Position numbers and translations under genes: made by a program. Of a stretch of 45,511 nucleotides of DNA, positions 6,230-19,004 are shown one piece after another. Under the pieces are notes generated by a model, which saw only the letters and a list, made by a program, of their open reading frames with translations, did no database searches and was not told the origin of the DNA. Each line of letters opens with the position of its first letter. Within the stretch, counting starts at the first letter, position 1. Origin of the DNA: Escherichia phage vB_Ec-G8; the sequence record PQ433350.1, one strand, 5' to 3'.

Positions 6230-7195
6230 ATGAGCTTTAAAGTTTTTACGCGAGAGGAACTAAGCAACGAGGCTTACCACGCTGAAACTGATCACATCTC
6301 CGGTAGCTCACTTGTCGAGATTATCCAGGGCTCACCGGCTAAGTGGAAATTCAAACAGAGAAATAGCGATAGTAAGGCGCTTAAGTTTGGAACCCTAAGT
6401 CACACTATGATTTTGGAGCAAGATGTATTCGATAAAGAATACCTTCGAGAAACAGACTTTGATGCGATTGAGGGCTTAATTACAAGTCAAACAGGCTTAG
6501 CTTCAGCGCTTAAGAAAGTTGGTGTAGCTGGCGCGTCTGGGAAGGCCTATAGCGAGCTTGTGGAGATGATGTATCGATCTTCTGAGGATTGGCCTGTTAA
6601 GTGGCTAATTGAACAGCAGGAGAGCGCGCAGGCGCTTGTAGAGGGTAAGGAGCTAGTTAGCGCATCAGACTACGACAAGGTGGCGGCGATGCGTGAAGTT
6701 CTCTGCAACATTCCGGCATATAATGCAATTGTGAACAGCGAGACAGCGCAGAAAGAGCTATCAATCTTCGGTGAGATTCTGGGAGTTGGTGTTAAGATTC
6801 GAATTGACAACGTTGATGTTATTGATGGCGCTGTTCGGATCACAGATTATAAAACTACCGCAGACGCAAGCCCGGAAGGGTTCGGTAAATCGGCATTCTC
6901 GCACGGATACCTTGCAAAAATGGCGCTTCAGCGCGATCTTTTTGTGAAGGCATTTAACGAGAAGCGCAAGGTTGTTGTAGGCTTGCTGGCTCAGGAGAAA
7001 GTAGAGCCATATCTGCCAATGCTTTATACCTTGACGGACGAGCAGCTACGAATCGGTAGGTTGCAGTATCTTGAGGCGCTGGCTACTTACAAGAAGTGCA
7101 AGGAGCTGGATATTTGGCCTGGCTACTCGAATGGCATTACAGAGCAAGAGCTATTAGTTCCTGAGTGGGCGATTAAACAATATAGAGAGATATAA
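6230..7195 (+). CDS. PD-(D/E)xK recombination exonuclease (RecE/YqaJ/Cas4-like)
   Basis: 321 aa; D...D-Y-K nuclease motif (IRIDNVDVIDGAVRITDYKTT); AAGGA RBS; adjacent to Erf and SSB. Confidence 0.75.
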   Translation: MSFKVFTREELSNEAYHAETDHISGSSLVEIIQGSPAKWKFKQRNSDSKALKFGTLSHTMILEQDVFDKEYLRETDFDAIEGLITSQTGLASALKKVGVAGASGKAYSELVEMMYRSSEDWPVKWLIEQQESAQALVEGKELVSASDYDKVAAMREVLCNIPAYNAIVNSETAQKELSIFGEILGVGVKIRIDNVDVIDGAVRITDYKTTADASPEGFGKSAFSHGYLAKMALQRDLFVKAFNEKRKVVVGLLAQEKVEPYLPMLYTLTDEQLRIGRLQYLEALATYKKCKELDIWPGYSNGITEQELLVPEWAIKQYREI

Positions 7196-7196
7196 A

Positions 7197-7661
7197 ATGA
7201 ATAAAGATTGCTGGCAGACTCCTTTAGAGTTATTCAAACAAGTAGATGATAAATACAACTTCGAGGTTGACGTGTGCGCAAGTCCAGATAATGCTCTTTG
7301 TGAATATTTCTGGACTGAAGATGATGACTGCTTACAACAAGATTGGGGTGATGATTTCGGTTTCGTTTGGTGCAATCCTCCATATAGTAACCAACTTCCA
7401 TTTGTCGAAAAGTGCCAGCAATATGGTTATGCAGTCATGCTGTTGAATCAGGACACATCAACAAAATGGGCTAAGATAGTCTTTGAAAAGGCTTCAAAGG
7501 TTATACTCTTATCAGACAGGGTTAGGTTTATAAATCCATTAACATTGGAGGTTGGTAAGTCCAACCCCAAATGCCAGATGATCGTGATTTTCGACAAGAG
7601 AAGTAATTCTGGAGTTGATATACGTTGGTGCTCAATAAAAGAAATTCATAAGCACATATAA
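7197..7661 (+). CDS. dam: DNA N6-adenine methyltransferase (phage Dam type)
   Basis: 154 aa; motif IV NPPY (VWCNPPY) and N-terminal WQTP block typical of small phage Dam methylases. Confidence 0.85.
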   Translation: MNKDCWQTPLELFKQVDDKYNFEVDVCASPDNALCEYFWTEDDDCLQQDWGDDFGFVWCNPPYSNQLPFVEKCQQYGYAVMLLNQDTSTKWAKIVFEKASKVILLSDRVRFINPLTLEVGKSNPKCQMIVIFDKRSNSGVDIRWCSIKEIHKHI

Positions 7662-7734: not shown

Positions 7735-8385
7735 ATGCAAATTTCAGATTCATGCAAGTCAATTTTAAACGCGCTACACACTGCTAAATCGCTATTTGCG
7801 AAGGCTGAAAAGTCAAAGCAGAACTCGCACCTTAAGAACAAATACGCCACCCTAGAAGACGTATTGGCGGCTGTTGAGCCAGGACTTGATGAGTGCGGTT
7901 TGGTTATGTTCCAGAGTGTCCTAGATGATGATCAAACAAACCGCATGAAGGTTGAGACAAAGCTTTTCCATGCGGAGTCAGGCGAATGGGTTAGCTTCTT
8001 AATGATTGTCCCAATCAGCAAGAATGATGCACAAGGTTACGGCTCAGCACTTACATACGCTAGACGTTACGGAATTACGGCAGCTTTAGGTCTCAGCCAG
8101 GCAGATGATGATGGAAATCTCGCAGCAAAAGGCGTCAAGGACTTTAAAAGAGAGCTTGAGAAGTGCAATACGCTCGATGAGCTTCGTAATGTATGGAAAG
8201 AGGCAAAGCAATCACTTGATGCGGCAGGATGGAAGGTTTTCGAACCACACATCATAGAGCGCAAGGCAGAGATTGAAACAAATGCAGCAACTGGCTTCAA
8301 CCCTGCTACACCTAAGAAAGTCGCAGAAAAAAGTAGTCCTGAAGAAAAGATTGAAGTAGAATCACAACAAATCGACACATTCTAA
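7735..8385 (+). CDS. erf: ERF-family single-strand annealing protein
   Basis: 216 aa; ERF signature region (GSALTYARRYGITAALG); GAGG RBS. Confidence 0.8.
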   Translation: MQISDSCKSILNALHTAKSLFAKAEKSKQNSHLKNKYATLEDVLAAVEPGLDECGLVMFQSVLDDDQTNRMKVETKLFHAESGEWVSFLMIVPISKNDAQGYGSALTYARRYGITAALGLSQADDDGNLAAKGVKDFKRELEKCNTLDELRNVWKEAKQSLDAAGWKVFEPHIIERKAEIETNAATGFNPATPKKVAEKSSPEEKIEVESQQIDTF

Positions 8386-8426
8386 ATTTAACGGGGCTTC
8401 GGCCCCAGCAATAGAGAGATAAAAAC

Positions 8427-8843
8427 ATGCACGTAATTACTGGTCAGATTCGCCGCGCTCCGTTCACCAAAGAAGGCGCAAACTCCAATGGTACATGGAA
8501 AATGTTTGCGGTTGATTTGAGTGAGAGACACAAAGATAAAGATGGTAAGACTCAGTATAGTAACTATCGCGCCGTCTTCTTTGCTAAAGAGTCAATGTTA
8601 GATTGGTACAACGAAGCATTTCAAGAGGGTAAAGTTGTTAGCGTTAGCGCAGAGACTCTTTCTGTTGATGTTCGTGATAAAGATGGCAAGACTTACGTAA
8701 CCATCAATATGAACAACCCGCGACTTGAATTTGGTCAGCGTGGTGATGCTGGAAGTCAGCAGCAGCAACAGCAGCAACAGCAACAGCAGAAGCAAAGACA
8801 ACCGCAGCAGCAACAGCAGTTTGATGACTCTATTCCATTCTAA
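8427..8843 (+). CDS. ssb: Single-stranded DNA-binding protein with poly-Gln linker
   Basis: 138 aa; OB-fold-like N-terminus; canonical acidic SSB tail DDSIPF; long poly-Q linker; followed by terminator. Confidence 0.85.
   Translation: MHVITGQIRRAPFTKEGANSNGTWKMFAVDLSERHKDKDGKTQYSNYRAVFFAKESMLDWYNEAFQEGKVVSVSAETLSVDVRDKDGKTYVTINMNNPRLEFGQRGDAGSQQQQQQQQQQQKQRQPQQQQQFDDSIPF
8757..8820 (+). repeat. CAG/CAA trinucleotide tract encoding the SSB poly-Gln linker
   Basis: About 20 consecutive Gln codons with Lys/Arg/Pro interruptions. Confidence 0.8.
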
Positions 8844-8849
8844 AGATAA

Positions 8850-8871
8850 GGCCCCTTTCGGGGCCTTTTTT
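8850..8871. terminator. Bidirectional intrinsic terminator (ssb / tail fibre convergence)
   Basis: GGCCCC-tttc-GGGGCC + T6. Confidence 0.75.
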
Positions 8872-11701
8872 ACGAAGCTGTATTTACCTGAAGATATGCA
8901 CCATTAGTTGCACCAAACCATGCGTAAGCAGATCCGTAAGCAGATCCGTAAGTTGTTGGGTTGTCATTTAAAATGAAATCACCCGCTCTAATTACGCACT
9001 TTGCTCCATATGTATCAGTGGGTCTTGCACTAAACCCATAATCAACATATCTAAAACCAACCTTCGTTACGTTATCGTTAAGCGGGAAGATCCTTAAGAA
9101 GCTGGAATCTCTAAAGTCATTGTTCCTGAAAATTCCTCCTGTAAAGTTATCCATATCAAACATTGTGGTTAAACTTGAGGCAACAGTATTCCTGAACTTG
9201 TTGCCTTCATATGTCGGAGCTACTACTTCATAGCCAACTCTTAGCTGAACAAACCCCCCATCAATAATATTGTCCTTGACTATTGGATATTGCCCGCCGA
9301 TTGCTAAGCCACCAAACCCAGGTGTAAATTTGCAACTATTATTACTAAATATAGTGCCAACCCACGCCTGATTTGTAAGGTATGGTGCCTTGGTGTCGGT
9401 CATGGTGTTTCCGGTGATAATCAATCCATTCTTAGCCTGGGTTCCCTCCTGGCAACCCTGAATCGCTACGCCTCCACCAATCATAATGTTGTCTGATATA
9501 AGAATGTTACTTAACCCATCATTAACACCCCAATCGCTTGATGCATCATTTGTTATCAGTAGGTAGTGAGAAGAAGCTCTACCAGTAGCGTCCGTACTTA
9601 TAATACTTGTATTGCCTTTGCATATAACATTGTTTGCCGCAAAAACCTCAACAAATATACCAGCACCTTCGTAGTAGTTATCCGTAACCGTTACGTTATT
9701 GCCAGCCGGGGTTATCCTTGACTGGATAGATATTGGATAATAGAACTTGTTGGCGTGAGCGTAAGACCTTCGGCTTCTCTCGGATATTGCATAATCCTCC
9801 GCGAAAGTATGCCATGCCCTTCCTGACTGTTTTGTTGTGTTTCCTATAAACTCTGAGTAGTCACAGTTTCTTGTGATTAAGCAGTAGTTAACGTTGTATC
9901 TGAAGCTTGAATTTCTAAGAGATACGAATGCATTAGGTAAGCCATTAAGAGCATCGGCATTAACAAAGGCCCTCGAGGCATTAACCTCCATACCCTCGAT
10001 CACAACTGATGCGCATCCTTCAACCATAAAACCAAACCAGTCTTCTCTTGGTTTATGCTCTGTATCCGTTGGTTGGATTGAGTAATCTGAAAAGTCACTA
10101 TTCCAGTTTAGGCCGCTAGCTTTAAGTGTGCAATTCTTTGCGCCGAAAACAACCCTCTCAGGTGATGAACTTCCAGATATATCGATCTCAACATCATTAT
10201 TGGCAAAAATATCAACATTAAGGCCATTAAGGAAGAATGCCGTCTTCCTTAATACGTTGTACTTATCATTGTACTGAATATCAGTGGAGAATGAGACCTT
10301 CAGTCTTCCTGCGCTAATCCTTACCTTCCTGTTTGTGTTGTGACCAAGATTTATACACGCCATCACTGATGCGTTTGATTCATTAACTCCAGAAACATCA
10401 TGCCCAGCCCACTCAGTATGGATATCATCGATCCCTCCTGTAAACCTAACCCAGCAACCATTCCCCCCTGGTGATGGCTCACCAACTCCTCCAAGGAAGT
10501 CTGAAAGCGTGGAATAAGTACCATCAAATGGAACCGTTGGGCTAAAAACAGTAATCCCGTTATGTTCGCTCTTACTTACTAACGGACTCCAGTAGAACAG
10601 ACCGCCACCAGAGTTTGCTCCAGAAATGTAAGACCTTACATTTGCTAAATTTTTATTCTCATTTGTTTGTTTGATTAGTTCGTAAATTGAATCAACTGAA
10701 GATAGTCCTAAATTGCTCCTGGCAAGGCTTTTATCTGCAACATCAGATAAATTCAATGATTTTTGAAAAGTCTCATTTTTTGAGTAAACATCAAGCAAGC
10801 CTCTTACTCGCTGGGCGCTAGCGCCGCCAACCCGACTTCCTGATGCGACATAAAGAGCCTCTCTTGAATAGTAAGTTTTGTTTGGTGCCGTGCCAGTCTG
10901 AGTTAAATCAATCACCCTGTACGTATTATCGGATCCGGTTGATGCTGACACTTGTATGTTCTTAACACCAGTAATCCCCCTTGCTGACTTAACCTCAATC
11001 GCACAAAGCGCGCTATCGGAGTAGGTTATATTTATCACCTCTGGAGCGTTGATCATTGCTGACTTTTGGCATAGGTATCTAGCTCCTGATTTGAAATCAA
11101 ACGTATTCCAGTCAAGTTCTGTCAACTGAGGTGTAAGCGAGCCACCGATACCCATATTGGCAAGAGTTACCATTGTGCCAGCATCACCAGCACTATTAAT
11201 TGCCTCAATAGTAGCATCTCTCGCTGATGTGGTTGTATCCCTTGCGCTAACGGCAGTAGCGGCGCTCTCTGCGGCAGCAATCTGGCTAGCTAAAGACTCG
11301 GCAGCCCCTGTTACTGATTGGTTTGCTAATTGCTCGAAGCGAGGCCAATCGAAATTATCTTGCCCGATAAATTGCAGCAAACTTTCAATAGAAGTCTCCT
11401 TTGACTGATAGTAACGCAGAGTCTCAGCAACATCCTGAGCTAAACCCTGAACGGTAATGCCATCGTGAGCAAGAATCGCGTAACCAGTTCCGGCAGGAAC
11501 AGTTTCAGAATTAGGGTTGTAAACATTAATCTGAGTGTCGCTGATGATTTCAGAGATGGTATAAATTTTAAGTGGACTGGTTTTAAAAATAATGGTTGCA
11601 CCTACACGAATCAGTGTAAGTGGTGCTTTCCATGTTGTCCCGACGCCAGTTACCTCGCCATTTGCGGATAGCGACGCTGTTCCCAAGTCATAAATTGCCA
11701 T
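8870..11701 (-). CDS. Tail fibre / tailspike with right-handed beta-helix (pectate-lyase-like) domain
   Basis: 943 aa from ATG 11701 (GGAG upstream; ORF-track start 11731 is GTG); N-terminal adaptor-like segment, Asn/Gly-rich repetitive beta-helix-like middle; boundary element immediately upstream. Confidence 0.8.
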   Translation of the reverse strand: MAIYDLGTASLSANGEVTGVGTTWKAPLTLIRVGATIIFKTSPLKIYTISEIISDTQINVYNPNSETVPAGTGYAILAHDGITVQGLAQDVAETLRYYQSKETSIESLLQFIGQDNFDWPRFEQLANQSVTGAAESLASQIAAAESAATAVSARDTTTSARDATIEAINSAGDAGTMVTLANMGIGGSLTPQLTELDWNTFDFKSGARYLCQKSAMINAPEVINITYSDSALCAIEVKSARGITGVKNIQVSASTGSDNTYRVIDLTQTGTAPNKTYYSREALYVASGSRVGGASAQRVRGLLDVYSKNETFQKSLNLSDVADKSLARSNLGLSSVDSIYELIKQTNENKNLANVRSYISGANSGGGLFYWSPLVSKSEHNGITVFSPTVPFDGTYSTLSDFLGGVGEPSPGGNGCWVRFTGGIDDIHTEWAGHDVSGVNESNASVMACINLGHNTNRKVRISAGRLKVSFSTDIQYNDKYNVLRKTAFFLNGLNVDIFANNDVEIDISGSSSPERVVFGAKNCTLKASGLNWNSDFSDYSIQPTDTEHKPREDWFGFMVEGCASVVIEGMEVNASRAFVNADALNGLPNAFVSLRNSSFRYNVNYCLITRNCDYSEFIGNTTKQSGRAWHTFAEDYAISERSRRSYAHANKFYYPISIQSRITPAGNNVTVTDNYYEGAGIFVEVFAANNVICKGNTSIISTDATGRASSHYLLITNDASSDWGVNDGLSNILISDNIMIGGGVAIQGCQEGTQAKNGLIITGNTMTDTKAPYLTNQAWVGTIFSNNSCKFTPGFGGLAIGGQYPIVKDNIIDGGFVQLRVGYEVVAPTYEGNKFRNTVASSLTTMFDMDNFTGGIFRNNDFRDSSFLRIFPLNDNVTKVGFRYVDYGFSARPTDTYGAKCVIRAGDFILNDNPTTYGSAYGSAYAWFGATNGAYLQVNTAS

Positions 11702-11724
11702 TGTGTAAAGTCTCCATTTGTAAA

Positions 11725-11742
11725 ATAGCACGAATTGCTAAG
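11725..11742. promoter_or_regulatory. Boundary element core upstream of tail fibre gene (orientation ambiguous)
   Basis: ATAGCACGAATTGCTAAG, 21 nt upstream of the minus-strand ATG 11701. Confidence 0.5.
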
Positions 11743-18530: not shown

Positions 18531-19004
18531 ATGAATTGGCACGATTATTACGAATATTCAGATGGTTATTTGTACAGAAAGAACCACAAGGTATCATCTT
18601 ATAACGGAGTTAAGGCCGGGTATGTTGATTTGAGAGGTTATGTTAGGACTAAGCTGTTTTCAAAGATGACTTTTGCCCATCGAGTAATATGGGAAATGCA
18701 TAACGGAGAAGTTCCTGAAGGTATGGAGATCGATCACATTAATGGAGTTAAGCACGATAATCGGATAGAGAATTTGAGATGTGTGGATAGGTTTATCAAC
18801 TGCAAGAACGCATCAAAGAGATCTGACAACAAGAGCGGAACAACTGGAGTTAGTTATTCAAGCTCAAAGCAAAGATGGATAGTGCAATTGCAAAAAGATG
18901 GCGTTAGGGAGTCAAAATCCTTTATGGATAAATTTGACGCAGAAGTCTACGCTAAAAATTTCTACGCAGCAAACCCAGAATTTACAGAGAGGCACGGTAA
19001 ATAG
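18531..19004 (+). CDS. HNH homing endonuclease with AP2-like DNA-binding domain
   Basis: 157 aa; HNH block (AHRVIWEMHNG...IDHINGVKHDNRIENLR); own upstream element and GAGGAG RBS. Confidence 0.85.
   Translation: MNWHDYYEYSDGYLYRKNHKVSSYNGVKAGYVDLRGYVRTKLFSKMTFAHRVIWEMHNGEVPEGMEIDHINGVKHDNRIENLRCVDRFINCKNASKRSDNKSGTTGVSYSSSKQRWIVQLQKDGVRESKSFMDKFDAEVYAKNFYAANPEFTERHGK

Follow-up and report, generated by a model that had tools for sequence, protein, structure and literature searches.

The DNA analysed here, referred to as the window, is the whole 45,511 nt stretch from Escherichia phage vB_Ec-G8 (PQ433350.1), a T1-like coliphage of the Drexlerviridae (Braunvirinae). Its closest GenBank genome is Guelphvirus EC3a (Drexlerviridae, Braunvirinae), which is 89.6% identical across 82% of the first 25 kb. 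The window encodes a single-strand DNA-binding protein (SSB), and its ssb gene lies directly downstream of an exonuclease-Dam-Erf block, a recombination module. The 3′ part of ssb contains a tract of CAG and CAA codons. The genes and features at the locus are as follows.

6230..7195, plus strand: PD-(D/E)XK exonuclease, exonuclease VIII-like (Pfam DUF3799, E = 3e-22; PHROG 412, E = 9.8e-98)
7197-7661, upstream of ssb: Dam methylase
7735..8385, plus strand: Erf-family single-strand annealing protein (Pfam ERF, E = 1.4e-27; PHROG 155, E = 2.6e-47)
8427..8843, plus strand: SSB gene, 138 aa and a TAA stop (open reading frame list, PHROG 44, GenBank annotation of relatives)
8427..8741, plus strand: predicted OB-fold ssDNA-binding domain, residues 1-105 (AlphaFold2, Foldseek, family profile)
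8733..8819, plus strand: intrinsically disordered linker, residues 103-131, composed of GQRGDAGS and a Gln-rich core (pLDDT, length variation)
8757..8819, plus strand: CAG/CAA tract, 21 codons with 18 Gln (sequence, Tandem Repeats Finder, codon counts)
8820..8840, plus strand: tip FDDSIPF, resembling the host SSB C-terminus, with the stop directly after it at 8841-8843 (sequence)
8848..8871, no strand assigned: hairpin AAGGCCCC-TTTC-GGGGCCTT and a T run, between the convergent ssb and tail-fibre genes

The tract occupies codons 111-131 of the plus-strand reading frame. It reads CAG CAG CAG CAA CAG CAG CAA CAG CAA CAG CAG over its codons 1-11 and AAG CAA AGA CAA CCG CAG CAG CAA CAG CAG over its codons 12-21, translating as Q11-K-Q-R-Q-P-Q5 before FDDSIPF and the TAA stop. 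The original prediction of a CAG/CAA tract in the SSB at 8757-8820 is confirmed, with its true end at 8819, since the Phe codon of the tip starts at base 8820. The estimate of about 20 Gln codons was right about the Gln-rich character of the tract and wrong in the exact count, which is 18 (12 CAG and 6 CAA, interrupted by AAG, AGA and CCG). The tract was also correctly called imperfect: its longest pure runs are 3 units of CAG and 1 unit of CAA, and the longest pure codon run among the relatives examined is 6 units. Tandem Repeats Finder reports the tract with periods of 3, 12 and 18. Relative to a Gln background of 4.0% in the window's long open reading frames, the binomial probability of at least 18 Gln in 21 codons is about 7e-23; the other long reading frames of the window have no comparable Gln-rich stretch, and the sole other six-frame match is interrupted by a stop codon. 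Further, CAG accounts for 67% of the tract's Gln codons and for 71% genome-wide, a similarity indicating that the tract is old and has been kept at the amino-acid level, rather than being a recent expansion of one codon. The RNA structure of the tract does not rise above that of shuffled sequences (z = +1.6), and a role in RNA structure was rejected on this basis.

Downstream of ssb, the hairpin at 8848-8871 (RNA fold of -17.6 kcal/mol, z = -2.9) is likely a bidirectional terminator. In EC3a, a terminator is annotated at the matching position on both strands; a consensus terminator scan of the window failed to flag the hairpin because the T residues at the start of the run are taken up in its stem. 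The 41 nt gap between erf and ssb contains a further hairpin (GGGGCTTCGGCCCC, 8393-8406), which is GC-rich and has a UUCG loop. It has no T run on the plus strand, the scan finds it terminator-like on the minus strand only, and it may be an mRNA-stability or processing element. On the other side of ssb, the tail-fibre gene (8870..11731, minus strand) contains a perfect 12 nt tandem repeat, CGTAAGCAGATC, in 2.5 copies at 8923-8952, which encodes YGSAYGSAYA near the C-terminus of the tail fibre and lies 80 nt from the SSB tract. The tail-fibre homolog at a related locus (L009) has a single YGSA, which makes this another repeat-encoded length difference near the SSB tract.

Elsewhere in the window, no DNA polymerase turned up in the non-structural long reading frames, which code for a primase, two helicases, a repair exonuclease, an HNH endonuclease, regulators and an endolysin; EC3a has none annotated either. 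This is consistent with a dependence on host replication proteins. The HNH endonuclease is free-standing (18531-19004, plus strand; PHROG 99, E = 6e-48) and sits between the repair exonuclease and the lysis genes; the HNH gene of EC3a is placed elsewhere, beside the primase, and these differing positions suggest mobile homing endonucleases in this phage group.

Predicted fold and tip of the phage SSB

The assignment of the gene begins with its match to PHROG 44, 'single strand DNA binding protein' (E = 2.1e-27), and with GenBank, where relatives of the reading frame carry an SSB annotation. Searches of Pfam and the PDB with the single sequence gave no SSB: the window protein does not match the Pfam SSB family (PF00436) at E <= 0.1 and stays below its gathering threshold, and phmmer against the PDB found no solved SSB. 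A profile and a predicted structure were needed, and both were derived from an alignment of 40 sequences (A1) that includes relatives down to 43% identity. PF00436 is matched by one of 40 family members (E = 2.5e-4), which indicates a divergent SSB lineage beyond the reach of Pfam; with matches to PF00436 weak or missing, the classification rests on PHROG, the family profile and the predicted fold. Two members of the SSB family in A1 also weakly match DUF3127. The family profile matches the Klebsiella SSB 7f2n over the OB domain and tail (E = 3.7e-5), the tail of E. coli SSB 1eqq (E = 2.9e-4) and yeast Rim1 (E = 0.006).

AlphaFold2, run on the same alignment, predicts the N-terminal domain as a beta-barrel with one helix; residues 1-100 have a pLDDT of 88-95 when averaged in blocks of 10. 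Foldseek's leading matches in the PDB include one phage SSB and are otherwise OB folds of the bacterial SSB/PriB type (E down to 3e-5; target-normalised TM of 0.5-0.64), and the N-terminal domain is thereby modelled as an SSB-type OB fold. In residues 107-131, the pLDDT drops below 50, and the linker is a low-complexity segment, predicted to be disordered, with few charged or hydrophobic residues, though it is Gln-rich rather than Gly/Pro-rich. Overall, the predicted fold, the profile and the Foldseek matches agree with the earlier placement of the tract as the linker between an OB fold and an acidic IPF tip. As a presumed SSB of the bacterial type, the window protein would form tetramers or dimers, bind ssDNA and contact SSB-interacting proteins through its tip.

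The protein ends in an acidic tip of the form ...D-(D/x)-I-P-F with a free terminal Phe. The family profile aligns its tail to the end of E. coli SSB, NEPPMDFDDDIPF, DFDDDIPF, and IPF is terminal in 278 collected family proteins of at least 125 aa.

Separately, 10 of 343 family proteins extend past IPF by a conserved 15 aa, A[PSY]xGL[QM][YH]x4[IVL]x[ASC][LIM] (for example, ...DDIPFASLGLQYGKHRIYAL), and these occur in lineages as distant as about 30-60% identity. The extension loci are L009 (1501-1962), L025 (1501-1959) and L026 (1501-2001); the window, with its stop at 8841-8843, lacks the extension. An internal IPF tip in the extended proteins would have lost the free carboxylate of the terminal Phe. 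In two of these loci the next gene is a Cys-rich HNH-like reading frame whose ATG overlaps the end of the extension, and in the third it encodes a 63-aa HTH protein. The explanation that the extension is part of a downstream HNH-like cassette therefore holds in two loci and fails in the third, and a single cassette does not account for the extension.

Linker length and composition among related phages

Across 121 sequences, which include 120 close homologs with 82-94% identity to the window protein, the OB part (up to NNPRLEF) is 102 aa long in every case, whereas the linkers range from 25 to 37 aa and comprise 99 distinct sequences. A larger set of 197 proteins, combining the close homologs with cluster members and the results of a second search, has the same constant 102 aa OB part and 173 distinct tails. 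With the window's own tail included, the 174 distinct tails have linkers of 20-46 aa (mean 31.7, sd 3.6), and protein lengths vary from 129 to 154 aa inside single 90%-identity clusters. Moreover, among protein pairs whose OB parts differ by 2-3 amino acids, 88% differ in linker length, a proportion equal to that of the most divergent pairs. The same statistic for identical-OB pairs (0-1 differences) is biased by a database from which duplicate sequences are absent; the bin of 2-3 differences and a series of DNA alleles were used in its place.

Some of the database labels encountered are themselves doubtful. For example, PP134917.1, 'Pseudomonas phage PsgS01F' (44,679 bp), has the same length and match statistics as PQ314493.1, Escherichia phage vB_EcoS_UALMA_PCEc3, and this T1-like coliphage genome with a Pseudomonas host label looks like a mislabel or contamination. 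A family protein (P0241) is likewise named as a protein of Streptomyces lividans.

The DNA alleles (L012-L019) belong to one lineage and were recovered from metagenomes. The tract of L012 reads ...CAG CAA CAA CAA CAG AGA...; L014 equals L012 with one CAA added, L015 and L016 equal L014 with a 12 nt unit added (CAACAACAACAG; CAA CAA CAA CAG), and L017 has one CAA more than L015 and L016. Apart from the 12 nt indel, L014 and L015 show 4 nt differences in the 306 nt OB part. Similar steps are found elsewhere: one allele (L004) has an 18 nt tandem duplication, and two proteins with identical OB parts (P0013 and P0154) are one PQQ unit apart. Among 30 pairs of tails that differ by a single indel only, the indel is an exact tandem copy of neighbouring residues in 15. 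Related genomes thus differ by in-frame indels in repeat units. The original prediction had expected in-frame changes in tract length and had named an invariant tract across related genomes as the contrary outcome. The comparison across related genomes refutes invariance, and the spread of linker lengths, the variety of tails and the steps of one CAA and of 12 nt bear the expectation out.

The linker core of the 174 tails is composed of 70% Gln, 8.9% Pro, 5.3% Arg, 3.4% Lys and 3.1% His, with 0.16% Glu, 0.23% Leu, and Asp and aromatic residues near zero; the net charge of the linker is mostly +2. Glu and Leu are one transversion away from CAA or CAG, as are Lys, His and Pro, yet they are nearly missing, and linker composition is, judging from these sequences, constrained. 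The window's own linker has 29 aa with 62% Gln overall, and its Q11 run is among the longest of the clade, where a run of 11 is reached by 5 of 121 sequences. Within the wider family (about 99 representatives at 50% identity), most tails are rich in Gln and Pro and end in IPF. The more distant members have E. coli-like tails with Gly/Pro/Gln linkers, such as ...GGWGQPQQPQ...NEPPMDFDDDIPF, which suggests that the poly-Gln of the window's clade is a derived, shortened and Gln-enriched form of linker.

Recombination has also contributed to this diversity. The allele nearest to that of the window (L027, 124-540) has 21 differences in the 306 nt of the OB part (6.9%) and 4 in the 111 nt of the tail (3.6%), with an equal tract length and an identical terminator. 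This mosaic allele points to recombination, with a probable junction within or close to the 3′ portion of ssb. Because tract length was kept over a 6.9% divergence of the OB part, the rate of change is either uneven or dominated by module exchange. Further, linker heads are paired with tips in many ways, and all four gametes were present in 50 of the 420 head-pair by tip-pair combinations tested; part of the linker variation comes from recombination that reshuffles heads and tips, and not from slippage only.

Probable drift of a disordered spacer and its alternatives

Within strains, the tract is constant. In particular, 43 GenBank records of one phage (vB_EcoS-..., host DSM 12242; one of them a RefSeq copy) are 100% identical over the whole gene, and the tracts of Veterinaerplatzvirus T145P1 are identical in 4 records with differing genome lengths. 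No length polymorphism among near-identical isolates occurs in these 43 + 4 consensus genome records. Similarly, contigs from different samples with identical OB DNA have equal tract lengths (L012 and L013; L018 and L019). An invariant tract within strains indicates slow drift rather than a tuning switch. The further idea in the original prediction, that changes in length would tune the interaction linker, found no support in these comparisons.

The reading that we favour, with a probability of about 0.7, is that the tract encodes the disordered spacer of a host-mimicking phage SSB, whose length drifts between lineages and is stable within a strain. The N-terminal OB domain would bind ssDNA, and FDDSIPF would imitate the tip of the host SSB and presumably dock host SSB-interacting proteins, with the phage's own Erf, helicase or primase as possible further partners. 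We infer this partner binding, as well as a role for the Gln-rich segment as a flexible spacer, uncharged to slightly basic, which would set the reach of the tip and the ease with which it folds back onto the OB domain, and which may also add to SSB-SSB association. Short CAG/CAA repeats, interleaved with one another, encode the spacer, which would allow whole codons or units of 9-18 nt to be gained or lost through slippage during replication and through recombination of an unequal or mosaic kind. Selection would keep the composition (Gln, Pro, Arg, Lys and His, without acidic or hydrophobic residues) and a broad window of lengths rather than a particular length, so that length would drift over the time in which sequences diverge by about 1% and remain stable within a strain.

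Near-neutral drift of length under selection for composition fits the data best. Given that E. coli SSB tolerates edits of its linker, small steps, of one to a few residues on a length of some 30 aa, are the more likely to be near-neutral, and the bounded range of lengths could equally reflect stabilising selection on length. In SSB, the tip is the cause of partner binding; a shorter linker increases the competition between the tip and the OB domain in E. coli SSB, and bacterial SSB linkers range from 16 to 126 aa (PMC7145534). The E. coli SSB linker is needed for condensation, and linker length and composition together set condensation behaviour and the compatibility between SSB variants (PMC12143593). 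According to these published effects, large changes in length could matter.

In an adaptive account, selection on the length and sequence of the linker would vary from phage to phage, for example by matching host partner sets, by assembly properties relative to the host SSB or by evading defence systems that sense SSBs. In favour of this account are the many tails (173 distinct ones among 197 proteins) next to an OB domain that is conserved, and linker lengths that are randomised as soon as OB parts differ by 2-3 amino acids. In E. coli SSB variants, linker length and composition govern condensation as well as compatibility in co-condensation (PMC12143593), shorter linkers alter the availability of the tip (PMC7145534), and phage SSBs repeatedly trigger defence systems. 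However, indels accumulate in low-complexity repeats without selection, the identical-OB pairs are biased by the non-redundant database, no association of linker length with a phenotype was found, and the distributions of linker length overlap across tip types. Moreover, SSB sensing has been documented for phage SSBs of the T7 gp2.5 type and for others, from T5 and T4, that are likewise unrelated, and tests with T7 gp2.5 show that sensing needs the OB fold and ssDNA binding, with the C-terminal tail dispensable. We therefore regard adaptive tuning as unlikely. A specific link to Retron-Eco8, DARNA, Hachiman or AbpAB was considered and rejected, as it involves unrelated SSBs and a dispensable C-terminal tail in T7 gp2.5, and no basis for it was found.

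The Gln-rich segment could instead act mainly as a self-association module, prion-like or condensate-forming, that drives SSB clustering on ssDNA or in replication foci. The uninterrupted Q11, the strong selection for Gln itself over other polar residues and the requirement of the linker for E. coli SSB condensation (PMC12143593) speak for such a module. The elements responsible for condensation in E. coli SSB, however, are Gly-rich segments, aromatic residues and Arg (PMC12143593), which are largely missing here, and the segment of 29 aa is short. As a main function, self-association is quite improbable; as a contribution, it is compatible with the spacer model and does not exclude it.

A more speculative proposal, to which we give little credence, is that the poly-Gln linker serves as a fast-evolving identity tag, by which the phage SSB would keep the host tip, and with it the capture of replication and repair proteins of the host, and assemble separately from the SSBs of the host or of co-infecting relatives. 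If this were true, selection rather than drift would maintain the diversity of linkers, acting on compatibility in condensates or co-assembly or on the ability to escape defences that sense SSBs. A search of the literature on T1 replication or SSB turned up nothing useful.

A hypermutable contingency locus, with frequent changes of tract length within a population and a standing heterogeneity of SSBs, is highly improbable. In-frame slippage is possible for triplet repeats, and lineages do differ by single-codon steps where pure runs are longest, at (CAA)3-5; however, the window has no long perfect repeat array, its longest pure run being just 3 units, and the tracts are identical in the 43 + 4 near-identical genome records and equal in length in identical-OB contigs from different samples. 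As far as consensus genomes can resolve it, hypermutability is largely refuted. Finally, that the tract is an artefact or a non-coding repeat, or that the real gene is the 71-aa minus-strand reading frame overlapping it (8598..8813) with a poly-Leu run, can be dismissed, as the plus-strand frame is kept from its start to its IPF-stop in hundreds of independent assemblies with all indels in frame, the poly-Leu run is the mirror image of CAG, and the tract RNA has no more structure than shuffled sequences.

Comparison with known systems

The tract is a real but ordinary feature: the known layout of an SSB, with a linker that is unusually rich in Gln and variable in length. Its importance is modest. 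The linkers form a natural allelic series (20-46 aa), dominated by Gln and joined to a host-type tip, which could be material for testing tip availability, cooperativity and condensation, all current questions for E. coli SSB. The tract also calls for caution, in that imperfect triplet tracts in phage genes should not be read as switches, because this one is stable within strains and variable only between lineages.

The bacterial simple-sequence contingency loci share with the tract short tandem repeats inside a coding region. They differ in that the triplets of the tract cannot switch the reading frame, its repeats are imperfect and no within-strain polymorphism was found. The poly-Gln tracts of eukaryotic proteins such as TBP and huntingtin likewise consist of a Gln run encoded by interleaved CAG and CAA with length polymorphism through slippage, and CAA interruptions limit the instability of such tracts. 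In contrast to those of TBP and huntingtin, the phage tract has much shorter pure runs, a viral and bacterial context and no evidence of expansion dynamics, and it would serve as a spacer between two defined modules.

Among phage SSBs, T7 gp2.5 and others whose acidic C-terminal tails end in Phe resemble the window protein in having an acidic C-terminus with a terminal aromatic residue that mediates protein contacts. However, T7 gp2.5 belongs to a different and larger OB-fold family, has no Gln-rich spacer and uses its tail to bind its own polymerase and helicase, whereas the phage studied here has no recognisable polymerase and its tip copies a host motif.

A further close likeness is to the SSB of E. 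coli and other enterobacteria, in which an OB domain, a 56-aa disordered linker and a 9-aa acidic tip, MDFDDDIPF, are arranged in the same layout. The two tips have F-D-D-x-I-P-F and the terminal Phe in common, and both linkers are of low complexity, nearly without acidic or hydrophobic residues, and predicted to be disordered. The differences are that the window linker is about half as long (29 versus 56 aa) and has almost no Gly in its core, where bacterial SSB linkers are described as Gly/Pro-rich (PMC7145534); that the window tip has Ser at -4 and lacks the NEPPM lead-in; that its OB domain is too divergent for PF00436; and that its gene is phage-encoded and adjoins those of Erf and the exonuclease. 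In more distant members of the phage family, the tail can be aligned to that of E. coli SSB position by position.
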